A stretch of 64,000 nt of DNA from a virus, in the IMG/VR virus record IMGVR_UViG_3300002461_000132, positions 1-64,000 of that record; one strand, written 5' to 3'. A program made the position numbers and the translations under genes. The notes under the pieces are model-generated. The model saw only the letters and a program-made list of their open reading frames with translations, was not told the origin of the DNA and searched no databases. The number at the start of each line of letters is the position of its first letter. Within the stretch, counting starts at the first letter, position 1. Positions 2,446-35,932 of this stretch are shown piece by piece.

Positions 2446-3203
2446 ACGGCGTGCTAGGGCGCGTCCCATCGCGCAAGGATCCGCGGACGTTGCGCCTAGC
2501 CAACTACGGGACCAACGGCATGTTGCCCGCGTCGCCGCCGGCGCGGTCGTGGGGCACCGGGCTGACGTTTCCCCTGTACGCGAACGATCGGATCGGGGAC
2601 TGCGCGATCGCGAGCGCCGCACACCTCGGCATCGCGTGGCTTGCGGCGAAGCGGACCGACGGCGCGTTGATCGATCGGGCACCGCTCGACGAGGCGGCCG
2701 TCGTCAGCGCCTATCGCGCGGTGTCGGGCTACAACCCGATGGATCCGTCGACGGACGTCGGTTGTCAGATGATCGACGTGTTGCGCTACTGGCGAAAGCA
2801 CGGCATCGGCGACGACAAGATCACGGCGTTCGCGGCCGTCGATCCGGATCGCCGCGACCACATCGCCGCGTGCGTCAACCTGTTCGGGGGCTGCTACATC
2901 GGCGCGGACCTTCCAACCGCCTCGCAGGATGATCCGGTTTGGCGCGCACCGTCGATCGAGGATCGCGGCCGCCCCGAATGGCGCGCGGGATCGTGGGGTG
3001 GTCACGCGATGGCGATCGTCGGCTACGATCGCGCGTCGGTGCAACTCGTCACGTGGGGTCGCGTGCAGCGCGCTACATGGTCGTGGATCGATGCGTACGT
3101 GTCCGAAGCGTGGGCCGTCGTCGATCCCGTTTGGTCATTCGGCGAGCGCACGCCGGCCGGCTTCGACGTCGGGCGCCTCGCGTTCGACCTGTCGCGCCTC
3201 TAG
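2442..3203 (+). CDS. Papain-fold (C1-like) cysteine peptidase, candidate cell-wall endopeptidase
   Basis: Motifs occur in papain order: [14 protein letters not shown] (Cys), [12 protein letters not shown] (His), [13 protein letters not shown]. It is the last gene of the plus-strand block, after two membrane proteins. Confidence 0.55.
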
Positions 3204-3910
3204 TCGTCGTATCCGTCACCGCGATCGCGCGCCTTCGCGCGAGCTCGCACATCCATCTCGACGGCCGCGCGCGCGAGCTCGACGCGTTCGACGTCGGCCT
3301 CGCGAGCTTCGGCGGTGCGCTCGCCGTCGTTCGGATTCGGTACGTTCGCTTTCAACTTGTGCAGGCCGCGGACTTCGACTTGACGAATTCGCTCGCGCGT
3401 CAGGTTCATGATCTCGCCGACCTCCTCGAGCGTGATCCCTCCGCGATCGGCGACGTCGAGCGCGCACGTGTGCTTGAGCTCCCACGGCTCGAGCTCCGGG
3501 AAATTGATCTTGATCGATCCCGTCTCGGGGTTGACGTCGAGATACAGGTGATACGCACACGAGACCCACGGGCACGGCCGATCCTGACCGAGACACTCGC
3601 CGCGCGTTGTCGGGCGAACGTGCAACGCATGCTCGCCGTCGAGATCGATCGGTCGCGCCACGGTCGCGAAGCCGGCGATCTTCGTCAGCGCGGTGTTGCG
3701 ACGCGCCATGCGAACCGAGATCGTGCGCGATCGCGGCCGCGTGCGACGGCGACGCGTGCGACGTTTCACGGCGCGCGGTGCCTCGATCGTCGGCACGATC
3801 GAATCGGTCGCGGCCTCGACGAAAGACGCCGCGACGCCGTCGAGGATCTCGGCCACTTCATCCACCGCGAAGAGATCCGGATCGATGTCACTTCGGGGGC
3901 GCAGATGCAT
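3200..3910 (-). CDS. Sigma-70 region-4-like HTH DNA-binding protein (no region 2 recognised)
   Basis: [38 protein letters not shown] matches the sigma70 region 4 HTH pattern. A Cys/His cluster (CPWVSCAYH) precedes it. Start taken at ATG 3910; GTG 3865 is also possible. Last gene of the minus arm. Confidence 0.6.
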
Positions 3911-4205
3911 CCTTCTTCGGCGGGGGCGGCCGCGTCTCGCCTGCAGCCGAGACGTGGTTGCGGTAGCCCGCGACGGCCACGACGAACGTGACGCCGTCAC
4001 CGCCGGGGTTGTCCTCGAGTCGCGCGTTGACGCCGGCGTACGGCTTGTCGAGCGCGCGCAGCGTCTCGATCGCCATCTCCTTCGCCGACTCGAACAACTC
4101 GAGGTGCGCGGGGCTCTCGAGACCTCGCGCCGGATGCACGCCGGCGTCGGCCTCGAGCACCGCGATCACGTCGTCACGTTCACCATTCACATCGATCATG
4201 ATCAT
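3888..4205 (-). CDS. Hypothetical protein (105 aa)
   Basis: [22 protein letters not shown]... The ATG at 4205 forms an ATGA overlap with the methyltransferase stop. The upstream part of listed ORF 3888..4526 is Arg-rich shadow sequence. Confidence 0.6.
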
Positions 4206-6500: not shown

Positions 6501-7478
6501 TCACGTTTGGGGCCACGGGTGGCGCTCCTTTCCGCCGTTCGTCTTGTCCGACTCGGCACCGAAGATCTCGTCGAGCACGTCGTGCATGATGCCCCGCTCG
6601 GGGATGGTAGAGCTCGGCTCGAGGCCGCACGCGCGCGCGCCGATCCACAACGGACCGGGATCGGTGCGTCGCTTCGGATCGACCTGGCAGTGGCCGAGCG
6701 CGCACACGTCGCGCGTCAGACCGTAGCGCCGCACGAGCGCGCTCGCGATCCGCAACGCGCCGAGCTTCTGCGCGTCGGTGTACTTGTGCAGCGCGCGACC
6801 GGGGGCCGTCACGTGCACCTCGTTGCGAGGCGAGCACGCCGGCCGCGCGTCGGGGTTGTCCCACCGGAACGGCCACGACGCCCACACCTTGCCGCCCCCG
6901 TCGACGTAGTCGGGGCCGAGCTTCTTCGCGCGGGCATCCGGTTCGATCCAACGAAGCTCACCGAGGTTGATCACCTCGACGCCGAACGCGAACGCGTTCG
7001 CACCGTAGCCGCGGATCTTGCCGCGTTGCGCGATCGTCAGCGGGACCCACGGTTGCGACTTCATCGCCGGGCGCATGAACAGCAACGTGCTGTCGGATCC
7101 CATGTGCCACGATCCGTGTTTCGCGCTGACCGACTGCGCGATCAGACCATCGCGATCCAACCACGCGTGGCACGATGCAGCGCGGCCGCCGGGCTTCGCG
7201 ATCCGCTCGGCGAGCGACTTCGCCGGCGTGTCGCGCGTGTCGGTCCAGTGCCAACCGATCGCGTCAATGTCGCCGTCGAGGGTCGACAGCGGCGATCGTT
7301 TGTTGGTCAGGATCACGTCGATGCCGTCGCCGTGCATGATGCCCTCGTCGTCGATCTCGATCGGCGCGGGGCCCTCGTGCGCGCGGTGCAGCATCTCGAT
7401 CGCAAGCCGCGTCGTCTCCGCGATCTGCGCGTTGAGCTCGGCGATCTTCTGTTCCGTTGCGGGGTCTCGGGTGGTCAT
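6501..7478 (-). CDS. N-acetylmuramoyl-L-alanine amidase (amidase_2 / PGRP fold)
   Basis: Motifs AIGWHWTDT, CHAWLDRDG, GSWHMG, FGVEVINLG and LGHCQVDPKRRTDPGP in the usual order. The ~60-aa N-terminal region is helical. Confidence 0.7.
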   Translation of the reverse strand: MTTRDPATEQKIAELNAQIAETTRLAIEMLHRAHEGPAPIEIDDEGIMHGDGIDVILTNKRSPLSTLDGDIDAIGWHWTDTRDTPAKSLAERIAKPGGRAASCHAWLDRDGLIAQSVSAKHGSWHMGSDSTLLFMRPAMKSQPWVPLTIAQRGKIRGYGANAFAFGVEVINLGELRWIEPDARAKKLGPDYVDGGGKVWASWPFRWDNPDARPACSPRNEVHVTAPGRALHKYTDAQKLGALRIASALVRRYGLTRDVCALGHCQVDPKRRTDPGPLWIGARACGLEPSSTIPERGIMHDVLDEIFGAESDKTNGGKERHPWPQT

Positions 7479-7487
7479 GGCTGATCC

Positions 7488-8045
7488 CTAGAACGTGTCG
7501 GGTTGGAAGGGAAGCGCGAACGATGCATCGCCGCACACGATCCGGATCTCGGGGAACGTGAACCGCGGGGCCGGCGCGCGGCCGAACCGCTCGCCGAGCT
7601 CGCGCGTCAGATCCGACTTGGTCGCCTTCTCGGCCTCGGGGCGACAGAGCGTGACGTGCGGGACGAACCCGAACGAATCGTCGACGCGCACCCGCCGGTT
7701 CTCGAGCTCGATCATCAACCCGGCACGCAGCGCGAACAGGTCGCGCGAGTTGACGAGCGTGATCAGGGTCGGCGCGTTCTTGCGCCAGAACCAACCGACG
7801 CCGGTGATCTGCGCGGCGATCGGGCCCTTGGTCGCGTTCGCGAGCTCGAGGGCTGCGCTGTAGATCTTCTCGACGCGCGCTTGATCGTTGTCACGGCCGA
7901 GGTGCACGAGCGTGACGTGCGCGTCCTCGGGGAACCATTCGCGCATCGGATGATCTCCGACGACTTCACGCGGCACGAACAACCCGATCCACAGACCGCG
8001 GCCGGCCTTCGCACCTTCGACGAGCTCGTTGTACTTGTCACCCAT
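7488..8045 (-). CDS. 2H phosphoesterase (LigT / cyclic phosphodiesterase family)
   Basis: Two HxT motifs about 90 aa apart (AHVTLVHLG and PHVTLCRP). ATG at 8045 (MGDKYNEL...). Confidence 0.65.
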   Translation of the reverse strand: MGDKYNELVEGAKAGRGLWIGLFVPREVVGDHPMREWFPEDAHVTLVHLGRDNDQARVEKIYSAALELANATKGPIAAQITGVGWFWRKNAPTLITLVNSRDLFALRAGLMIELENRRVRVDDSFGFVPHVTLCRPEAEKATKSDLTRELGERFGRAPAPRFTFPEIRIVCGDASFALPFQPDTF

Positions 8046-8055
8046 TCGATCGCTC

Positions 8056-8325
8056 CTACTTGATCGTCGGCGCAGCGCCGATCTCGCATCCGATGCACAC
8101 GTCTGATCCAGGATGCAGCCGGAAGTGACACACCGGACATCGGCGCTCGATCGGCTCGGACTGGAACCACGCGGCCGCGAGCACGAGAACGCTCGGCCGA
8201 ACCACGCGTGCGCGCGGGATCCGCGCTGATCGATCAACGAGAGATGTCACCGCCTCGATCACCTTGACGAAGATCGATCGAACGATCACGACGGAAGCGA
8301 TCCAGATGAAGATATCTCGCGGCAC
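8056..8325 (-). CDS. Small membrane protein with C-terminal zinc ribbon
   Basis: GTG start. Hydrophobic segments IFIWIASVVIVRSIF and PSVLVLAAAWF, then CPVCHF...CIGCE. A promoter-like element lies immediately upstream. Confidence 0.45.
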   Translation of the reverse strand: MPRDIFIWIASVVIVRSIFVKVIEAVTSLVDRSARIPRARVVRPSVLVLAAAWFQSEPIERRCPVCHFRLHPGSDVCIGCEIGAAPTIK

Positions 8326-18483: not shown

Positions 18484-20196
18484 CTACGTCAACCACGCGC
18501 GGTAGGCATCGCCCACAACTTCGTCGCTGATCCGCTTCTTCTCGACGAGCGCACGCACGATGCGTTCGTCGACGGTGCGCAGCGCAACGAGATCGAAGTA
18601 GGTCACGTTGCAGCGTTGCCCGATGCGGTGATTTCGATCCTCCGACTGCAAACGGTTCACGAGGTTGAAGTCATTCGAGTAGTAGACCGTCGTCGTAGCC
18701 TCGACGAGCGTGACGCCCATCCCGATCGCCGCGGCATTCGCGACGAAGAAACGCGCGCGGTCCGTACCGCGGAAGTCGTCGATCGCTTTCGCCCGGTCGC
18801 CACGCGAGGTCACCGCGCCGTCGTAGCGCACGCACGCGGGGCCGAGCTTCTGTACCAGGCGATCGATGTCGCGACGGAAGCGCGCCCACACGATCGCCTT
18901 GCCTGGTACGTCTTCGAGGAGCTCGAGGGTGTGCAGCAAGCGCGGATCGTTGCCGTCGCCGGGAATCGCGATCGGCTCGGCGTCGGGATCGTTCGGGTTG
19001 GGAAGGTAGCCGCACGCGATCTGTTGTAGCCGGAGGATGCGCACCATCGCGATCGCCGCGGTGATCAACTCGCCGTCGACCTCGAGCATGTACGTTCGCT
19101 TGAGCGTGTCGTATGCCCGTCGTTGTTCCGGGGCGAGCTCGAACGGGATCCGTTGGTACAACTTCTCGGGCAGGTTCAACCCCGCATCCTCTTTCGTGAG
19201 GCGCGAGCTATGGGGCTCGATCATCGCGCGGAGCTTGTCGATGTCCTTGTAGCCGACGACGATTTCACGCGTGATGCCTCGCGATGCTTTCTTCGCGTGC
19301 TCGTGCACCGCGGCCGCGCGCCGCTCGTCGCGATCGCCGGCGAGCTCGGGCACTGCGTTGCTGTCGTCCTCGCCGGCGCTGTAGTCGCCGAGCGCCTCCT
19401 CGAACGCGGCGGCCGCCGACATCTGCGCGGCCTTGTCCGTCAGCGTCATCATCTGTTGTGACGCCGGCGCGTCGTCGGTCGCCGGCGCGACGCGGCCTTG
19501 CGTCGGATCCTCGGGTGCGGCGATCACGATCTTCCGCTTGATCGCGAACAGGTTTTCGAACGCGGTGAACGATCCGATCCCGAGCTTTCGCCAGTAGAGC
19601 GGATCGAGGAGGAGCATTTGCCCGTAGAGGTCGAGCGGCGAGTTTGCGACGGGGGTGCCGTTCAAGATCCGAACGTACGCGGCCGCGTTCGCGATCCGCT
19701 GACAGACCTTCGACCGTTCCGCCGTCGGGTTTTTCACGCGCGCGGCCTCGTCGGTGATCTTCGTGAACCGCTTGCGCCTCGCCGCGAACGCGCGCGCGGC
19801 CGCGATGCCGGCGTCCGTCTTGAGACCGTCGTACGTGATCGACAGGCACGCGAGCATCGTGTCGGGCGCCGCGAGCAACTTGTCGAACGCCGCGCGTTGC
19901 TCCTTCGACTTCGACGCCGACGAATGCCAGTCGAGGCCGATCCACGGCACGTCACAATGGCGAGGGAGCTCGTCGCTAATCCAATTGCGGTGCACGCCGT
20001 CGGGCGCGACCACGATCACCCCCGACGTTCGGTCGTGCTTCCACAACCGGCTGACCGATCGGATCGTCGGCCGCGTCTTGCCTACGCCCATCTGCCAGAA
20101 GATCGCGAAGCCTCGACGCTCCCACGTGGCTTCGAGGAGCTCGGCTTGATGCACGAAGTCGTCGACGATCGTCGGCTCGGATCCCGTGGCGAGCAT
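18484..20196 (-). CDS. SNF2-family helicase
   Basis: QMGVGKTR (motif I), KITDEAARVKNP (motif II), LNGTPVANSPLDLY (motif III), QSEDRNHRIGQ (motif VI). Confidence 0.8.
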   Translation of the reverse strand: MLATGSEPTIVDDFVHQAELLEATWERRGFAIFWQMGVGKTRPTIRSVSRLWKHDRTSGVIVVAPDGVHRNWISDELPRHCDVPWIGLDWHSSASKSKEQRAAFDKLLAAPDTMLACLSITYDGLKTDAGIAAARAFAARRKRFTKITDEAARVKNPTAERSKVCQRIANAAAYVRILNGTPVANSPLDLYGQMLLLDPLYWRKLGIGSFTAFENLFAIKRKIVIAAPEDPTQGRVAPATDDAPASQQMMTLTDKAAQMSAAAAFEEALGDYSAGEDDSNAVPELAGDRDERRAAAVHEHAKKASRGITREIVVGYKDIDKLRAMIEPHSSRLTKEDAGLNLPEKLYQRIPFELAPEQRRAYDTLKRTYMLEVDGELITAAIAMVRILRLQQIACGYLPNPNDPDAEPIAIPGDGNDPRLLHTLELLEDVPGKAIVWARFRRDIDRLVQKLGPACVRYDGAVTSRGDRAKAIDDFRGTDRARFFVANAAAIGMGVTLVEATTTVYYSNDFNLVNRLQSEDRNHRIGQRCNVTYFDLVALRTVDERIVRALVEKKRISDEVVGDAYRAWLT

Positions 20197-20199
20197 CGA

Positions 20200-20514
20200 T
20201 CAGATCGACTCGTGCGGGTAGACTGTCGATCGCCGCACGTCGTCGAACGTGCGGCCGCACGTGCACGGCACGAGCACCTTCGGCAGTGACGCGGCGATGT
20301 TGTAGTAGTCGACGGCCGCGCGCTCGAGGTCAGCGCGCGCGAACGCGAGGTCAGACGGATCTCCGGTGCCAGCTGTACGCGCCGCGGCCGTGTGTCCGTA
20401 CTCGGATGCGAGCATCTCGAGACGTTCGCGAACGCCGTCGAGATGCGGTTGCGCGATCGGCGTGACAACGCTACGCACGAGATTCGGATCGGTGCCGTCG
20501 CAGCGCCGGATCAC
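20200..20514 (-). CDS. Hypothetical protein (104 aa)
   Basis: The GTG at 20514 forms a GTGA overlap with the upstream stop. Sequence VIRRCDGTDPNLVRSVVTPIAQPHLDG... Confidence 0.45.
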   Translation of the reverse strand: MIRRCDGTDPNLVRSVVTPIAQPHLDGVRERLEMLASEYGHTAAARTAGTGDPSDLAFARADLERAAVDYYNIAASLPKVLVPCTCGRTFDDVRRSTVYPHESI

Positions 20515-20831
20515 TTCGGGTCGCCTTCGCGCATCATCTCCTCGACGATGTGCCGCGATCGCGGATCGTCGAGGCCGTTGCGGATCCACGACCGACGCCA
20601 CGCGAACCACGCGGCGACGACGATCGCGATCATCATCGCGGCCGACAGCGCGAGGAGCATCGCGACCCCCGGCCAAAACCGAGGGAGCAACGGCTCGTTG
20701 TAGATCGCGGCCCCGACGATGTTGACGATCGTCATGCACGTGAACGTGATCGCGAACGTGCGCAACATGCCGAGGATCATCCGGCCGGCACGCGCGCGGA
20801 AGTACCGACGGAACAGCGGATCGCCGATCAT
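20511..20831 (-). CDS. Small membrane protein (about 3 TM helices)
   Basis: Hydrophobic segments MILGMLRTFAITFTCMTIVNIVGAAI and WPGVAMLLALSAAMMIAIVVAAWFAW. ATGA overlap with the upstream gene. Confidence 0.55.
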   Translation of the reverse strand: MIGDPLFRRYFRARAGRMILGMLRTFAITFTCMTIVNIVGAAIYNEPLLPRFWPGVAMLLALSAAMMIAIVVAAWFAWRRSWIRNGLDDPRSRHIVEEMMREGDPK

Positions 20832-21688
20832 GCTCCGATGTCTCCGACGAGCTCATAGCGGTGCAACACCGACTTCTCGAGCTCGGCTTGCCCCGCGAGG
20901 AATTCGCGCGCGGCCTTCTGTTGTCGCCGGCGCTTGTTGCGATCGTGCGACCACAGGATCGTGAAGTAGCTCGCGTGCGTCGGAGCCGGGCCGACCACCG
21001 GCGAATCGTCGGCGCGCGTGGTGAGCTCGAGGCGCCGCTTCTCGAGGCGCGCGCGCTCCTTCGTCGGCCGCTCGAGTCGCTTGTCGATGATCTTGATCAT
21101 GTGATCGGGATGGCACATGTACGCGATGCGCCGCATCGGAAACACGGTGATCGACTTCTCGCCGGCGATCGCCATGGGGCCCCGGTATCCCTTCTCGTGC
21201 TCGGCTTTCGTCGGGATCAACGAGCGGAGGTGATCGAGGTTGAACCCGTTCCAGAACACCGAGTCGATCTTCTTCGCCAGCCACAACCCGAACAGCGCGT
21301 AGTAGCAATCTTGCACGCGCAACCCGGAACCCTCGCCGGGAGGGTTGTTGAACGCAGAGCCGATGCCTTCTTGCCGCACGAGCTCGGCCTCCCAATCCTC
21401 GAGCTTCAACACGTCGCGACCGGGCGAACCGTCGAAGAACGCGCGCGGCCGGTGCGCGGCCGTCCACTGCTCTTGCCAGTAGGCCGAGCTCGAGGCGTCG
21501 AGATCGATCGGACACTTGTCCGGTTCGCGCGCGGCCGGTCGCAGCACGCATGCCGCGAACCGGCGGCCGACTTCCGGCGTCCCCCAATCGTCGGTGGCGG
21601 CGCTCGTCAGCGCACCGCGCGCCGATGTCGCCGGGCGCACGTCCGCGGCCGTCTGCGCGAACGCAGCCGGGGTTTCGTCCTTTGCCAC
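20828..21688 (-). CDS. Phage Dam-family DNA methyltransferase homologue with NPPG in place of NPPY/F
   Basis: DDWGTPEVGRRF...PIDLDASSS...FFDGS...SAFNNPPGEG follows the phage Dam family layout (W-x-TP, FDLDP-type, NPPY-type). The aromatic residue of the catalytic tetrapeptide is Gly. Confidence 0.5.
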   Translation of the reverse strand: MAKDETPAAFAQTAADVRPATSARGALTSAATDDWGTPEVGRRFAACVLRPAAREPDKCPIDLDASSSAYWQEQWTAAHRPRAFFDGSPGRDVLKLEDWEAELVRQEGIGSAFNNPPGEGSGLRVQDCYYALFGLWLAKKIDSVFWNGFNLDHLRSLIPTKAEHEKGYRGPMAIAGEKSITVFPMRRIAYMCHPDHMIKIIDKRLERPTKERARLEKRRLELTTRADDSPVVGPAPTHASYFTILWSHDRNKRRRQQKAAREFLAGQAELEKSVLHRYELVGDIGA

Positions 21689-21692
21689 GGAC

Positions 21693-21911
21693 CTACGCCG
21701 CTTTCTTCTTCGGGCCGGCCGCGGCCGCCTCGAGCTCGATCTCGCGGTTGCCGACGCTGCGCAGCCACGCGGCCGCGCTCGCGAACCCCTTCGAGTGCGC
21801 GTGATCTTCCCACTTCGCGAGCTCGGGATCCGTCGTGCGGATCTGGTAGCGCCGCTCGAGCGGCGACTTCTTCGAGCTCGGGTGACCCTTACGCTTCTTC
21901 GTTCCTGCCAT
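21693..21911 (-). CDS. Ribbon-helix-helix (CopG/MobC-like) DNA-binding protein
   Basis: RRYQIRTTDPELAKWEDHAHSKGFASAAAWLRSV fits a beta-strand, helix, helix pattern. Basic N terminus. ATG at 21911 directly after a promoter-like element. Confidence 0.5.
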   Translation of the reverse strand: MAGTKKRKGHPSSKKSPLERRYQIRTTDPELAKWEDHAHSKGFASAAAWLRSVGNREIELEAAAAGPKKKAA

Positions 21912-21962
21912 GATGGTCCCTTCTACTATCTCGCGTTGCGAGTTGTCAACAGTTGTCATACC
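21912..21962 (-). promoter_or_regulatory. Second-class promoter (TTGACA-18-TAGAAGGG)
   Basis: Minus strand: TTGACA (21949-21944), 18 nt, TAGAAG (21925-21920), 8 nt, ATG 21911. A degenerate second box (ATGACA) lies 10 bp upstream. Confidence 0.4.
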
Positions 21963-22285
21963 CCGAGGTGCTCGAGGCCGAGACGCAATTGCGTGACGAC
22001 GGAAAAGATCGCGGTCTGGATCGTCGACGGTGCGCGCATCGCGATCGCGTTGAAGTTGCGAATGCACTCGAGCACGCGCTCGCGCATGTCGACGGCCGCG
22101 CACGCGCTCGCCCACTCCGTCGACGAGAACGTCACCGCTCCGAGAAACTTCGCGTCGGTGTCCTCGCCGTCACCGACGCGCGCGAACACCTGCGTGCGCA
22201 CCGAACCATTCTCGAGCACCGCGATCCGCTTGATCGCGAGCGCACCGATCACGAATTCGCCGATCTGATCCGCGGTGCGCATCAC
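21956..22285 (-). CDS. Hypothetical protein (109 aa)
   Basis: The GTG at 22285 forms a GTGA overlap with the upstream stop. Balanced composition. Confidence 0.55.
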   Translation of the reverse strand: MMRTADQIGEFVIGALAIKRIAVLENGSVRTQVFARVGDGEDTDAKFLGAVTFSSTEWASACAAVDMRERVLECIRNFNAIAMRAPSTIQTAIFSVVTQLRLGLEHLGV

Positions 22286-22941
22286 GCAGCCTTCACGATC
22301 TCGAGCGCGATTTTCCGATCGGCGCTGCGCTCGATCGCGTCGACGCGGCCGTGCATCTCGCCGGCCGTCTTGTCGTCGACCCCGAGCACAACGATCATCT
22401 CGACGGCGCCGGTGCGCGCCAACGTGTCGACGATCTCGAGCGCTTGCGTCTTACTGTCGGGGAGCGACACGAGCACGTCACCGACTTCGACGCCGGCGGC
22501 CTTCAACGTGAGGGCACCGATCTCGTACATCGAAACGATCGCGCAGATCTCGCCGGCCTTCTGCCGTTCGCCGACGTCTTGGATCAGACGCCACGTCTGA
22601 TCGTCGCGCTCGCGCGCCGCTTGATCCGGGATCGTCCGGATCAACTGCTTCTCGCGCCCCGGTCGCGGTTCGCTCGGCGGCCGCACGGTGGACGCGAGGA
22701 GCTCGGCCGCGAGCTTCGTATCCCCTTGCGCGCGGTCGTATTCGTCCGACAGCAACGCGGCATCGTTCAACAGCGTGAGGAAGCACGAGCGTGCATCCTT
22801 GGAGCTTCCGAGCGTAGCGATCAGCATGCGAAATTGCTCGTCGCTGATCGGCGTGGTCACCGTGTCGGCGGCCGCCTTGTCGAGAGCTTCGCGAACGATG
22901 TGCGCCATGCGGCGAGCTTGAGCGGGGGAGTGTTCAGCCAT
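22282..22941 (-). CDS. RecA-core-fragment-like protein lacking Walker A and Walker B
   Basis: GEICAIVSMYEIGALTLKAAGVEVGDVLVSLPDSKTQALEIVDTLARTGAVEMIVVLGV aligns by eye to E. coli RecA [60 protein letters not shown]. No P-loop is present. The ATG at 22941 follows promoter cassette A. Confidence 0.5.
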   Translation of the reverse strand: MAEHSPAQARRMAHIVREALDKAAADTVTTPISDEQFRMLIATLGSSKDARSCFLTLLNDAALLSDEYDRAQGDTKLAAELLASTVRPPSEPRPGREKQLIRTIPDQAARERDDQTWRLIQDVGERQKAGEICAIVSMYEIGALTLKAAGVEVGDVLVSLPDSKTQALEIVDTLARTGAVEMIVVLGVDDKTAGEMHGRVDAIERSADRKIALEIVKAA

Positions 22942-22984
22942 GAGAGACAGGTTAAGGCTTTCGTCAACAGTTGTCAACAGGATG
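22942..22984 (-). promoter_or_regulatory. Promoter cassette A (leaderless geometry)
   Basis: Minus strand: TTGACA (22977-22972), 17 nt, TAACCT (22954-22949), 7 nt, ATG 22941. Contains the TGTTGAC doublet. Confidence 0.6.
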
Positions 22985-23380
22985 ACACACGTTGCACCAC
23001 GGTCCCAACATGGGGCATCGGCAAGCCTTCGGGTGCTCGATCCCGACGTCGAACGCGGGGCCGGCGAACGGCCACGACTTGCCGTACGACGCACCGTACC
23101 GGCGCGACCGGGCCGATCGAGCTCGTAGATCCTGCGACGGCGTGACCTCGAGCGCACCGGCATCGGACAACCGTCGCCAGTAGTCGGGGCACTCGGCCGG
23201 CCGCGTCACCGAGGAGCGCGCGAGTCGGTGCGCGACCTTGTTGATCCGGTAGCCGACTGTCGTCACCGACAACTCGAACAGCCGGGCAAGCGCCGCCTTC
23301 TTCACGCCGGCCGAGAACAGAAGCCAGATCATCGCGTCGCGCTGTTCACGTTCCTTCGCCGACAGCTTCATCGTCGTCAT
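22964..23380 (-). CDS. HTH DNA-binding protein
   Basis: N-terminal GVKKAALARLFELSVTTVGYRINKV helix-turn-helix. The ORF ends in a TGA inside the TGTTGA box of cassette A. The start is uncertain (ATG 23380, 23371 or 23332). Confidence 0.5.
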   Translation of the reverse strand: MTTMKLSAKEREQRDAMIWLLFSAGVKKAALARLFELSVTTVGYRINKVAHRLARSSVTRPAECPDYWRRLSDAGALEVTPSQDLRARSARSRRYGASYGKSWPFAGPAFDVGIEHPKACRCPMLGPWCNVCHPVDNC

Positions 23381-26823: not shown

Positions 26824-27129
26824 CTACGCCACGATCTTCGCGAGCGCGATCGACACGAGGCGTTGCGCGGCGAGCTCGAGCGCCGAGTCACGGAAGCCAC
26901 CGGCCGGAACGCCGGCGCGCGCGAAATCCGAGCGGAGGATCTCGATATGCGCATCGGTGCCGATGTCGCCGATGTAGCGGGGCATCGCGTAGAAGCGGAC
27001 ATCAGAACCCGAGCGCGACACGCGGTACACGTTGCCACGGATCGTCACGCGCGGACCGATCGCGCAAGTGACCTCGATCGCAAGCTGATGAATCTGCGCC
27101 GTCGTCGTTTCGTTGTTCGTCGTTTCCAT
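26824..27129 (-). CDS. Early ORFan (101 aa)
   Basis: METTNNETTTAQIHQLAIEV... The ATG lies 7 nt after the -10 of cassette C. No motif recognised. Confidence 0.6.
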   Translation of the reverse strand: METTNNETTTAQIHQLAIEVTCAIGPRVTIRGNVYRVSRSGSDVRFYAMPRYIGDIGTDAHIEILRSDFARAGVPAGGFRDSALELAAQRLVSIALAKIVA

Positions 27130-27172
27130 GAGAGACAGGTTAAGCCTTCCGTCAACAGTTGTCAACAGGTCC
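27130..27172 (-). promoter_or_regulatory. Promoter cassette C (leaderless geometry)
   Basis: Minus strand: TTGACA (27165-27160), 17 nt, TAACCT (27142-27137), 7 nt, ATG 27129. Confidence 0.6.
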
Positions 27173-27202: not shown

Positions 27203-27598
27203 CTAGCAGTTAGCCCCGTGGTTCGCACCGCGGCACATGCAATCGCATGCGGGGCCGGTCGCGTTGCGACAGATCGCCCCGCACTTGTGGCGCGACTTCT
27301 TCGTGCCCTCGGTGACCTTGTGCAGCTTGATCCACGTGTCGCAACCCGGGCACTTCGCGATCACCGACGCATCCTCGTTGTAGACGCGCGACGTTGCGAT
27401 CCCGGTCCCGTCAGCGTGCACGATCGCGATCCCCTGCAACGTCAGCCCCGACGCTCCCTCGAGCTTGTGCGTGCCCTTGCGGCCGCCGGCGCGACAGATC
27501 CGGCACCGGCCGATCCATCGGGCGGCCGCGGCGAGCTCGCGCACGAGGACGATCGGGCCGGTCGCCTTGAACGCCGGAAGCATGGTGATCGTCGTCAC
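27203..27598 (-). CDS. Cys-rich zinc-finger-like early protein (131 aa)
   Basis: The GTG start lies 2 nt after the upstream stop. Motifs CRICRAG, CPGCD and a C-terminal cluster HKCGAICRNATGPACDCMCRGANHGANC. Confidence 0.55.
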   Translation of the reverse strand: MTTITMLPAFKATGPIVLVRELAAAARWIGRCRICRAGGRKGTHKLEGASGLTLQGIAIVHADGTGIATSRVYNEDASVIAKCPGCDTWIKLHKVTEGTKKSRHKCGAICRNATGPACDCMCRGANHGANC

Positions 27599-28773: not shown

Positions 28774-29226
28774 ATGACGAAACGCATTGTTCACGCCCCG
28801 ATGAATTGGCCGAGCACGGCCGTTGCGCGCGTCACGATCAATTGGTCGGAGATCTCCGGCGGTGACGGCCGCACGTTCGTCGGACTCGCGGGCATCGATC
28901 ATTGGCTGCGCGCGAAGCTCGATCAGGCAGCGCTCAAGAGCGAAGGAGCGTACGGGGATCGTGGTTGCGATCGTCCGTCGGGCTACCTCAAGACGGAGAT
29001 CGAAGTGGTGTGGTGTGACGGCGAGCGGTTCACGTTCCGCGTCGATCTCAACTACGGCGTGACCTGTCGCGCCGATGCCCTCGGTTCGGACATCGTGACG
29101 GCCGAGCTCGTGCAGCGCGCGGCCTACTCGCGAGAGAAGGCCGACACGTTCGGCGTCTACTCGCCGGAGCTCTGCGCGTTCGTGGAATCGCGACTCGGCA
29201 CCATTGCACGCGAGCTCGCCGCGTGA
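28774..29226 (+). CDS. Early ORFan (150 aa)
   Basis: MTKRIVHAPMNWPSTAVARVTINW... The ATG lies 7 nt after the -10 of cassette G. GTGA overlap with the AlkB-like gene. Confidence 0.6.
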   Translation: MTKRIVHAPMNWPSTAVARVTINWSEISGGDGRTFVGLAGIDHWLRAKLDQAALKSEGAYGDRGCDRPSGYLKTEIEVVWCDGERFTFRVDLNYGVTCRADALGSDIVTAELVQRAAYSREKADTFGVYSPELCAFVESRLGTIARELAA

Positions 29227-29783
29227 CGTTGCCCGGCTGCTTCGCGCTGCAACGTCAGTGGATCATCGGTCACGATGCGGTGCTCGAGATCCTCGAGCGT
29301 ACGCTTCCGTGGTCCGTCGAACGAATCCGCATGTTCGGGCGCACCGTGCCGGTACCGCGTGCGACGGCGCTGATCGGCGAAGCACCGTACACCTACTCGG
29401 GCATCCGGCACACACCGGCCCCGTGGGATCCCATGCTCGCCGCGATGCGTGATCGCCTCGAGCGCGAGCTCGGGATCCGCTTCAACTCGTGTCTCGCCAA
29501 CTTCTACCGGAACGGCCGCGACTCGGTCGCCTGGCATGCGGATGACGAACCCGAGCTCGGCGAGCGGCCGACGATCGCAAGCGTGTCACTCGGGGACGCT
29601 CGGGCATTCGTCGTGCGTCGTGCCGCGGTTCCTCGCAACGTCGTCGAGGTGCTCGAGCTCGGATACGGTGACCTCCTCGTGATGCGCGACGAGTCGCAAG
29701 CGGACTATCAGCATTGCGTGTTCAAGACCTCGCATCCGGTCGGGCCCCGCATCAACCTGACGTTCCGATCCGTGCGCGTCTAG
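29223..29783 (+). CDS. alkB: AlkB-like Fe(II)/2-oxoglutarate-dependent dioxygenase
   Basis: NFYRNGRDSVAWHADDEPELG (HxD iron ligands), DLLVM...YQHCV (distal His) and RINLTFRSV (2OG-binding Arg) occur in AlkB order. Confidence 0.7.
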   Translation: MTLPGCFALQRQWIIGHDAVLEILERTLPWSVERIRMFGRTVPVPRATALIGEAPYTYSGIRHTPAPWDPMLAAMRDRLERELGIRFNSCLANFYRNGRDSVAWHADDEPELGERPTIASVSLGDARAFVVRRAAVPRNVVEVLELGYGDLLVMRDESQADYQHCVFKTSHPVGPRINLTFRSVRV

Positions 29784-35182: not shown

Positions 35183-35932
35183 ATGTTCGTCTCGGGTGAT
35201 CAAGTCGTCAGCGGTGCGTTGCGCGAACGCGAGATGCGACGTGACGTCGAAGGGGGCGAGGCGCCGGCCTCGCCGATCGTCGGATACGACGACGATGGTG
35301 TAGCGATCGAGGGCGAGCTCATCCCGTGGCGCGAACCGCGGCCGCCTGATGCGCCTCCTCCTCGTCGGTCGATCGGTGGTCACTCGATCGCGAAGCCGAA
35401 CCGCGAGCGGCGCGCGTACACCGAGCAACTCTACGTCGCGCAATATTCGTCGACGGAGATCAGCGAGATCATCACCGCGCGATTCGGTTGCTCGTCGCGC
35501 ACGGTCACGAAGGATCTGGCGATCATCAAAGCGCGCTACCTCGAGCGCGCGAGCGAACCACAGATTGTCGAGCAACGTCGCGAGCAAATGCTCGGCACGA
35601 TGCGGCTGATGCTGCACGAGTCACGCGCGGCCGGCGATCGACAGACCGCGCGCTTTCTCGTCGACAAGATGTGCAAGGTCGGCGGCCTCTACGCCCCGAT
35701 CAAGATCGAGTCGTCGCACACCTCGACGACGCTCGGCATCTCGATCGAAGTGGTCGCGAATGCCCTCGACGAAGAAGGCTTGAAGGCGCTCGAGCTCGTG
35801 CTCGCGCAAGTCGAGAAGGCCGGGATCAAGTTGCCGTCGTACGCGCAACAGGCGATTGCCCCCGGTGCTAAGGTGCTCGACGCTGAATCGACTGACGTCG
35901 ATGACGATGAAGGTGATGACGATGACGAATGA
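35183..35932 (+). CDS. Terminase small subunit candidate
   Basis: HTH-like STEISEIITARFGCSSRTVTKDLAIIKARY, a helical core and an acidic tail (DDDEGDDDDE). First gene after the repeat-rich region and upstream of terL. The start is uncertain. Confidence 0.5.
   Translation: MFVSGDQVVSGALREREMRRDVEGGEAPASPIVGYDDDGVAIEGELIPWREPRPPDAPPPRRSIGGHSIAKPNRERRAYTEQLYVAQYSSTEISEIITARFGCSSRTVTKDLAIIKARYLERASEPQIVEQRREQMLGTMRLMLHESRAAGDRQTARFLVDKMCKVGGLYAPIKIESSHTSTTLGISIEVVANALDEEGLKALELVLAQVEKAGIKLPSYAQQAIAPGAKVLDAESTDVDDDEGDDDDE

Follow-up and report, generated by a model that had tools for sequence, protein, structure and literature searches.

Known regulators of RecA filaments bind the filament groove, the C-terminus of RecA or the growing end, or they mimic the donor motif through which one monomer is joined to the next. 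RecA polymerises by docking its N-terminal helix/strand motif into the core of a neighbouring monomer, where the contacts include the Ile26 pocket and a salt bridge between Lys6 and Asp139 (PMC2672939). The acceptor surface for this motif includes RecA residues 112-117 and D139 (PMC6511836, PMC2672939), numbered here, as throughout, according to the mature E. coli protein. At the 3' end of the filament this surface is the only free site (PMC6511836), whereas at the 5' end, from which the filament disassembles, it is the RecA N-terminus that is free (PMC6511836, Fig. 5 legend). The tails of UmuC and ImuB mimic the N-terminal motif and bind the same acceptor surface (PMC6511836). ImuA of Myxococcus xanthus is homologous to RecA but has no Walker motifs; it has been reported to bind RecA1 and to inhibit both the binding of DNA and the exchange of strands by RecA1 (bioRxiv 10.1101/2020.12.14.422803), and a 2026 preprint describes ImuA of M. 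smegmatis as an ATP-dependent hexameric helicase-nuclease (10.64898/2026.08.14.744951). Here, we describe a gene for a 219-amino-acid (aa) protein on the minus strand (22282-22941) of the window, i.e., the whole 64,000-nucleotide (nt) stretch of DNA analysed, which is positions 1 to 64,000 of the IMG/VR virus record IMGVR_UViG_3300002461_000132. As judged from its sequence, the protein is best described as a two-domain member of a previously undescribed phage family of P-loop-less RecA half-cores. It is divided as follows:

22282-22941, minus strand: coding sequence of the 219-aa protein, with the ATG at 22941 and the stop codon at 22282-22284, taken from the list of open reading frames (ORFs) and their translations
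22687-22941, minus strand: N-terminal region, aa 1-85, with four predicted helices (6-25, 34-44, 48-70 and 75-85) and a predicted local distance difference test score (pLDDT) of 50-70 in AlphaFold2 (AF2)
22624-22686, minus strand: linker, aa 86-106, basic and proline-rich (VRPPSEPRPGREKQLIRTIPD), predicted to be disordered, with an AF2 pLDDT of 50 or less and no secondary structure
22285-22623, minus strand: RecA half-core domain, aa 107-219, delineated by Pfam, phmmer against the PDB, hhalign, Foldseek and AF2

The C-terminal half had been aligned to RecA by eye in an earlier note on this DNA, and database searches bear this homology out. Pfam family PF00154 matches aa 120-190 (positions 70-141 of the 262 in the profile) with an E-value of 2.4e-11 and 44.1 bits against a gathering cut-off of 27, and hhalign against a 22-sequence RecA alignment covers aa 110-190 with a probability of 98.1% and an E-value of 1.3e-13. 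A phmmer search of the PDB matched all RecA chains, with E-values from 1.6e-10 to 4e-5. Likewise, the structure search that the note had proposed returned RecA for all of the best 50 Foldseek matches in the PDB, over approximately 115-125 aligned columns, while the viral structures of BFVD gave weak matches only, to phage RecA-like recombinases. AF2 predicts aa 110-219 with a pLDDT of 84-93 from the single sequence and 90-98 with the family alignment, the latter model placing strands at 133-137, 156-159, 182-188 and 212-217. Within this domain, SLPDSKTQALEIVDTLARTGAVEMIVV is identical to E. coli RecA at 18 of 27 positions (the RecA 117-143 block, 67%), reproducing the two-thirds identity noticed earlier. 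The half-core comprises the post-P-loop helix, beta2, beta3, alphaE, beta4 (the former Walker B strand), alphaG and beta5, and corresponds roughly to E. coli RecA 68-144 plus approximately 166-193 with loop L1 deleted; the homology probably runs on to the C-terminus of the protein through alphaG-beta5. In the RecA sheet, beta3, beta2, beta4 and beta5 are adjacent, and by this topology the half-core is a contiguous half of the RecA central sheet.

The ATP site has been lost from this half-core. The 219 aa contain no GK[ST], the residues aligned to the end of the P-loop being R112-D-D-Q115-T116, and IVVLG at aa 183 stands in place of the RecA IVVDS, both as the earlier note had read them. Position by position, the RecA residues are replaced as follows:

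K72, the P-loop lysine: Q115
D94, in the ATP site: S137
E96, the catalytic glutamate: M138
D100, an adenine contact: G142
Y103, an adenine contact: T145
D144-S145, of Walker B: L186-G187

In addition, the gap from beta4 to beta5 is about 23 aa compared with about 42 in RecA, so that L1 (157-164) is missing, and the sequence stops directly behind beta5, leaving L2 (195-209) and the C-terminal domain absent. A hidden Markov model (HMM) of the RecA N-terminal oligomerisation motif finds none in the protein, and the TIGR02012 equivalog model gives 40.4 bits, far from its cut-off of 325.3. Because the catalytic residues, L1, L2, the N-terminal motif and the C-terminal domain are all missing, the protein cannot work as an ATPase, contact DNA in the way that RecA does or assemble head to tail, and it should not be regarded as a RecA by function or by equivalog threshold. 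The earlier denial of ATPase and recombinase activity is therefore upheld by the loss of K72, E96 and D144, the deletion of L1 and the absence of L2 and the C-terminal domain. The loss of the catalytic Glu96 (M138), the membership in a phage family of approximately 100-aa proteins, and the N-terminus as the unusual, lineage-specific part go beyond that note.

The family emerged from an exhaustive HMMER search of 1.84 billion representative proteins, which gave 344 matches; when 5.8 billion proteins were searched by word index, only full-length RecAs and the protein itself came up. Among the best 150 of the 344 matches are complete proteins of 92-126 aa without a P-loop and mostly without the Walker B aspartate. 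A profile search with the family alignment added three members and was otherwise swamped by truncated RecA fragments, bringing the total to about 20 short proteins with the same RecA boundaries, and in an alignment with 17 members the boundaries of the 219-aa protein agree with theirs, as does the secondary structure predicted by AF2. The members start at the post-P-loop helix, some with a vestigial HKT or GTK, lack the L1 segment and finish in a hydrophobic strand, while keeping the consensus ...AGxVCAxVD...AAGVxLxDLLVSQPDxxxQAxEIxDTLxRTGAxDLxV.... The C-terminal tail of the 219-aa protein (EMHGRVDAIERSADRKIAL) resembles those of members P0105, P0203 and P0154. On an HMM of 20 family members, itself excluded, the protein scores 80.6 bits against 52.2 on a RecA HMM, a comparison in which the family and the RecA sequence sets were both recruited from searches begun with this protein. 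It departs from the family in size, being 219 aa long compared with the 92-126 aa of the stand-alone members, and the N-terminal extension of about 105 aa is unique to it.

Four members lie on long, high-GC (64-71%), phage-like contigs (L045, L049, L053 and L054), in each of which the coding strand switches and the half-core gene follows in second or third place, in a group of small early genes. On L045, an unrelated 62.6-kb phage-like contig, the gene just upstream of the half-core P0102 is homologous (37%, E 4e-12) to the window ORF at 27203-27598 on the minus strand, a 131-aa early protein driven by the promoter cassette described below and weakly similar to DUF6510 and phrog_6842. The homologue is encoded at 7542-7958 of L045 and at 28-444 of L046, which hints that the half-core gene and this type of gene may form a linked early pair. 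Between two members at 62% identity, the ratio of nonsynonymous to synonymous substitution rates (dN/dS) is 0.48. No member was found in 50,697 GenBank phage records, where searches with the 219-aa protein and two members gave full-length RecA or UvsX only, and no description of the family was found in the literature searched. A scan of IMG/VR for relatives of the 219-aa protein gave nothing, as did tblastn of the protein against 43 loci of phages that share the SNF2 helicase of the window (25-45% identity); the family alignment is too variable for a DNA-pattern scan. A 96-aa protein on a 2.25-Mb contig, P0295, was excluded as a member, since it is a frameshifted host recA beside recX. Separately, the 643-aa metagenomic protein P0139 consists of two tandem full-length RecA modules with the degenerate P-loops GPEESRMT and GPPGCGTT and is apparently another sort of inactivated RecA derivative.

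The columns that are invariant or nearly so in the family correspond to RecA Q84, G108, N113 (as Asp), L115, S117, P119, E127, I128, L132 and G136. The column of RecA D139 holds Asp in most members and Glu (E181) in the 219-aa protein, and the ATP-site positions vary freely. The best-conserved block, beta3-alphaE-beta4, equals RecA 112-139. As RecA 112-117 and D139 form the acceptor site, the retained block is part of the RecA monomer-monomer interface, as the earlier note had supposed, and more precisely of its acceptor surface.

In the mechanism proposed here, the protein would be made at the start of infection, and its half-core may bind the N-terminal oligomerisation motif of the host RecA, which is accessible on monomers outside the filament and at the 5' filament end. 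Without the donor motif, the ATP site and the DNA loops, the half-core could not propagate a filament and would instead act as a sink or terminator disturbing RecA filament assembly. Downstream, this might affect the induction of SOS, the recombination that RecA carries out on phage DNA, or host responses that depend on RecA. Such binding to host RecA is the most economical hypothesis, because the acceptor surface is kept while the donor motif, the ATP site and the DNA loops are lost. Yet, the binding itself, the sign of its effect and any gain to the phage are all deduced, and the hypothesis is held tentatively and with somewhat less than even confidence. An acceptor-only protein would bind free RecA N-termini and not cap the growing 3' end. 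The idea of the earlier note that the protein is a filament cap or decoy is still an inference, and is better grounded now because the acceptor surface is conserved family-wide and ImuA provides a precedent for a P-loop-less homologue that binds and inhibits RecA. It could be speculated further, and with more doubt, that uncultured high-GC phages carry an acceptor-face mimic of approximately 100 aa as an anti-RecA weapon, perhaps also sequestering the tails of SOS polymerases, and that the 219-aa protein is a two-domain version whose N-terminus adds a second activity or target. Filament growth, SOS signalling or RecA-dependent defence might then be shut down within minutes of infection.

Several points weigh against this reading. 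The interaction with RecA is inferred only, from sequence and a single-chain model, and the conserved residues also form the core of the fold, so that their conservation may reflect folding and not a RecA-binding surface. The dN/dS of 0.48 indicates moderate constraint only. With its beta5 edge exposed and half of the core gone, the domain would have to dimerise or have another partner. The N-terminal domain, half of the protein, could carry the real activity. Finally, one family-bearing phage encodes its own RecT/exonuclease whereas this window encodes no recombinase, and hence there is no uniform link to recombination.

A further sequence that may touch on the RecA interface is found elsewhere in the window. 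The ORF just upstream of the large terminase gene (35183-35932, plus strand) encodes a small-terminase-like protein with an acidic tail and contains, at the C-terminal aa 193-212, NALDEEGLKALELVLAQVEK. With an E-value of 0.011 and 9.5 bits, this is the sole match in the window to the HMM made from the oligomerisation helix at the RecA N-terminus. The match may be due to chance, or it could be a motif like the RecA N-terminal motif (RecA-NT-like) that docks on RecA or on the half-core. No RecA-NT-like motif was found in the partial loci of the other family-bearing phages.

The N-terminal half sets the protein apart from the rest of the family. All 344 HMMER matches align to aa ~109-200, leaving this half without a homologue in the 1.84 billion representative proteins, and the N-terminal region has no match in Pfam, PHROGs, NCBIfam or the PDB. 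Neither does it resemble the genes neighbouring half-cores in other phages or contain a RecA-NT-like motif. Because it has no detectable relative or family match, the two-domain form appears to be specific to this phage lineage. The earlier description of an unrelated, helical N-terminal domain of about 130 aa was accurate in its first two parts, but its length is about 105 aa, since the RecA homology starts at aa 107-110. One segment, aa 7-41 (window 22819-22923, minus strand; AQARRMAHIVREALDKAAADTVTTPISDEQFRMLI), is identical at 13 of 34 positions to RecA alphaG-beta5-L2 (LQARLMSQALRK.LTGTVKKTNTLVIFINQLRMKI), although the alignment is weak; 1.6% of shuffled N-termini score as well, and the idea of a decayed second RecA piece was not accepted, the likeness not being significant. 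An internal start that would release a free half-core is likewise unsupported, the TTG at L100 having a poor Shine-Dalgarno-like context.

The coding status of the gene had to be checked because, with a GC content of 65% in the window, long ORFs are present in all six frames. In 120-nt windows, the GC content at third codon positions (GC3) in frame is 0.78-0.93 across the whole ORF and 0.85-0.93 in the RecA-like part, and the signal changes frame exactly at the adjoining genes. Together with a promoter cassette of its own, this in-frame GC3 identifies 22282-22941 as a real gene, as far as the DNA can tell. The encoded protein has a calculated pI of 10.7. In the public gene call the protein has 208 aa and begins at M12, and the identical protein, from M12, is called on contigs of several samples. 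This call is probably 11 codons short; the start was fixed at 22941 because the spacing between the cassette and the ATG is constant. The cassette and its copies in the window are:

22942-22985, minus strand: putative early-promoter cassette of the 219-aa gene, consisting of the tandem CTGTTGAC-AA-CTGTTGAC, a -35 TTGACA, a 17-nt spacer, a -10-like TAACCT, then GTCTCTC and the ATG
22980, 26812, 27168, 27860 and 28237, minus strand: cassette copies
28309, 28735 and 29796, plus strand: cassette copies
8367, 10922, 18449, 21952 and 25773, minus strand: degenerate cassette copies

In front of the 219-aa gene, TTGACA lies at 22977-22972 and TAACCT at 22954-22949, and GTCTCTC abuts the ATG. The 8-mer CTGTTGAC occurs 27 times in the window where 1.2 copies are expected, and TTGACA-N17-TAACCT five times where 0.01 is expected (for the pattern TTGACA-N16-18-TAWCCT). 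The aligned sites are copies of one cassette of approximately 45 nt, GGACCTGTTGACAACTGTTGACGnAAGGCTTAACCTGTCTCTCATG, present in at least seven copies, and in every full copy the distance from TAACCT to the ATG is exactly 7 nt. Many early genes have a cassette in front of them, to the left and to the right of the divergent region near 28.3 kb. A generic sigma-70 scan reported nothing; such a scan is blind to the cassette because TAACCT matches TATAAT at three of six positions. Having its own copy, the 219-aa gene therefore heads its own transcription unit. Since there is no room for a Shine-Dalgarno sequence between the -10 element and the ATG, a leaderless mRNA is the simplest reading and is supported by this spacing, and it appears that a single sigma-70-like promoter, repeated along the genome, drives the early genes of the phage and gives leaderless mRNAs. 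The tandem CTGTTGAC repeat could serve as an operator. Of the leaderless early promoter claimed by the earlier note, the gene's own repeated cassette and the ATG 7 nt past the -10 element are borne out, while "leaderless" stays a deduction and "early" is taken from the position of the gene. The genes that start at 27129 and 28198 on the minus strand, behind the cassettes at 27168 and 28237, have near-identical N-termini (METTNNETTTAQ... and METTNETHAV...), which suggests that early genes may have been duplicated together with their promoters.

The window makes up most of the 67.2-kb contig k127_83643 (ERZ922818, an activated-carbon, water-filter metagenome) and is the genome of a tailed phage. 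Structural genes on the plus strand encode the terminase large subunit, a Mu-type portal, a Mu-F-like protein, the tail tube and the tape measure. Early and replication genes on the minus strand encode the SNF2 helicase, Pam3 gp33/gp34-like proteins, an SF1 helicase, a DUF1643 protein, a family-A polymerase (PolA) and a DUF5906 primase-helicase. The 219-aa gene is located in this leftward arm, approximately 2 kb upstream of the SNF2 helicase gene. Among the window genes no recombinase was found, and among the neighbours of the 219-aa gene, which are phage early and replication genes, there is no Y-family or C-family polymerase, imuB or dnaE2. PADLOC gave no defence-system match. The gene is followed by:

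21956-22282, minus strand: downstream ORF of 108 aa, function unknown, present in the ORF list and in the public gene call

The ATG of this ORF (22282-22280) overlaps the TGA of the 219-aa gene (TGATG), which suggests coupling, and the two are probably co-transcribed and translationally coupled. The 108-aa ORF has no match in Pfam, PHROGs or PADLOC. Elsewhere in the window, an AlkB-like 2OG-Fe(II) oxygenase is encoded behind a cassette-like promoter (29223-29783, plus strand), and the AlkB of E. coli reportedly interacts with RecA (PMC5062977). The minus strand also encodes a protein with sigma-70 region 4 (3200-4000), an Amidase_2 endolysin (6501-7478) and a LigT/2'-5' RNA ligase-family protein (7488-8237).

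Contigs 100% identical to the window occur in other samples, with SRR28154522, SRR28154526 and SRR28154527 as runs. A 99.6% variant of window positions 18872-23021 (L058, ERZ922815 k127_24359) differs at 17 sites, of which 16 are synonymous, and all 17 fall in the SNF2 helicase gene and a 286-aa gene. With none in the RecA-like gene, the dN/dS of the 219-aa protein itself is not computable. A host search with the promoter 19-mer gave chance-level single matches in 185,579 genomes and none in IMG/VR. The RecAs nearest to the protein belong to Myxococcota (Nannocystaceae and Kofleriaceae) and Burkholderiales, which is only a hint as to the host. Integration of the phage via homology to recA was considered and dismissed, since an amino-acid identity of approximately 45% is far below what homologous recombination needs.

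Compared with RecA, the 219-aa protein has clear homology over approximately residues 68-144 and probably over 166-193, with the acceptor surface kept, but no P-loop, catalytic Glu, Walker B Asp, L1, L2, N-terminal motif or C-terminal domain. SulA is a small RecA-fold protein without a P-loop that covers a similar part of the fold; unlike the 219-aa gene, it is a cellular SOS gene whose product binds FtsZ. There is no Pfam match to SulA (PF03846) at E <= 10, the PDB profile search gives RecA only, and an identity as SulA was rejected, as hhalign of the family against a provisional E. coli SulA sequence gave a probability of 2.2%, though in the same register. Like the 219-aa protein, ImuA is a RecA homologue that has lost Walker A/B and the C-terminal domain, and its surface there has been proposed to accommodate the tail of ImuB, which is a RecA-NT-like motif, just as the same surface of RecA takes up the N-terminal motif (PMC6511836). 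However, ImuA is cellular, LexA-regulated, encoded beside imuB and dnaE2, and larger, with most of the core kept, whereas the 219-aa protein has half the core, carries an additional orphan domain at its N-terminus and is encoded in an early operon of a phage. The ImuA/ImuA' models of NCBIfam agree with this distinction, NF058630 giving 20 bits (E 4e-4) against a cut-off of 65 and NF033429 (cut-off 150) not reporting the protein. With scores far under the family cut-offs and a neighbourhood without imuB or dnaE2, the protein was rejected as an ImuA. Sak4 is likewise a phage-encoded, shortened protein of the RecA/Rad51 fold, but at approximately 245 aa it retains Walker A/B and the full ATPase core and performs single-strand annealing (PMC2896510); without Walker motifs or a PHROGs match, the 219-aa protein was not accepted as a Sak4/RadB-like recombinase. 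Finally, RecX, DinI, PsiB, the BRC repeats of BRCA2 and designed RecA N-terminal peptides share the proposed outcome, i.e., control of the filament through a protein interface, and two of them, the BRC repeats and the peptides, are directed at this very donor/acceptor interface (PMC2672939, PMC6511836). While these mimic the donor motif or bind the filament groove, the 219-aa protein would mimic the acceptor and be derived from RecA itself.

The same structural argument that underlies binding to the RecA N-terminus is also compatible with a positive mediator comparable to the Rad51 paralogues, which would hold the N-terminus of the 5'-terminal RecA and stabilise host filaments on phage DNA, favouring recombination-dependent replication or repair. 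The free N-terminus at the disassembling end (PMC6511836) would offer the site, the replication module (SNF2 helicase, SF1 helicase, PolA and primase-helicase) follows just downstream of the gene, and the window has no recombinase of its own. Yet, Sak4 and Rad55-57 keep their Walker motifs (PMC2896510) whereas the 219-aa protein has no ATP site, DNA-binding loops or donor motif, other phages place the gene among the first small early genes and not in a replication or recombination module, and one such phage has its own RecT system, making a mediator unlikely. The RecA fold might also be a mere scaffold directed at another target, either as a SulA-like inhibitor of FtsZ and division or as a binder of the RecA-NT-like tails of translesion polymerases (UmuC/ImuB/DinB). 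Phage early proteins that block division are common, and SulA, like ImuA, is a small RecA-fold protein without ATPase motifs (for ImuA, PMC6511836); the SulA alignment falls in the expected register and there are weak matches to ImuA' and ImuA (E 4e-4 to 0.03). Set against this are the lack of significant similarity to SulA by hhalign, Pfam or the PDB, ImuA and ImuA' scores far under their cut-offs (20 vs 65 bits and 14-17 vs 150 bits), and the absence of imuB and dnaE2 nearby. Moreover, the family is much closer to RecA itself, at E-values of 1e-27 to 1e-22 against RecA in the PDB, which suggests that RecA-specific surface features are retained, and a different target is accordingly judged improbable.

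It is more improbable still that the gene is a non-functional relic, in which a phage ORF was joined in frame to a recA fragment acquired through illegitimate recombination, the product being no more than tolerated. The 219-aa architecture is unique, its N-terminal half lacks a homologue in the 1.84 billion representatives, and long ORFs are easily kept at 65% GC. In contrast, the in-frame GC3 persists at 0.85-0.93 through the RecA-like part, the gene has a dedicated promoter cassette, and about 20 divergent proteins of other phages share the domain boundaries. The dN/dS below 1 between two family members, the conserved early-operon position and the compact domain predicted confidently by AF2 (pLDDT 90-98) also argue against a relic.

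Taking the binding of host RecA as the preferred reading, the protein would probably be a tool for interfering with host RecA, given that the half-core recurs as a stand-alone early protein of approximately 100 residues in other uncultured phages. Catalytically dead RecA/Rad51 derivatives and modulators of RecA filaments are known kinds, and a phage acceptor mimic derived from RecA would be a new variant of them. Prophage induction, the release of bacteriocins and tailocins, mutagenesis and several defences triggered by stress are under the control of the SOS/RecA axis. If the reading is true, the family would represent a new class of phage counter-measure against this axis, and a natural, RecA-derived acceptor mimic would be a new mode of filament control. 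A domain of approximately 100 aa with a confidently predicted fold may also be a handy tool, or a lead against RecA-dependent evolution of resistance, as the RecA interface has been proposed as a drug target (PMC6511836). Regardless of function, the Pfam label "RecA" in viromes covers, among others, a distinct family of non-enzymatic proteins, and in the phage of this window a single, strongly conserved promoter cassette serves all the early genes, apparently giving leaderless mRNAs.

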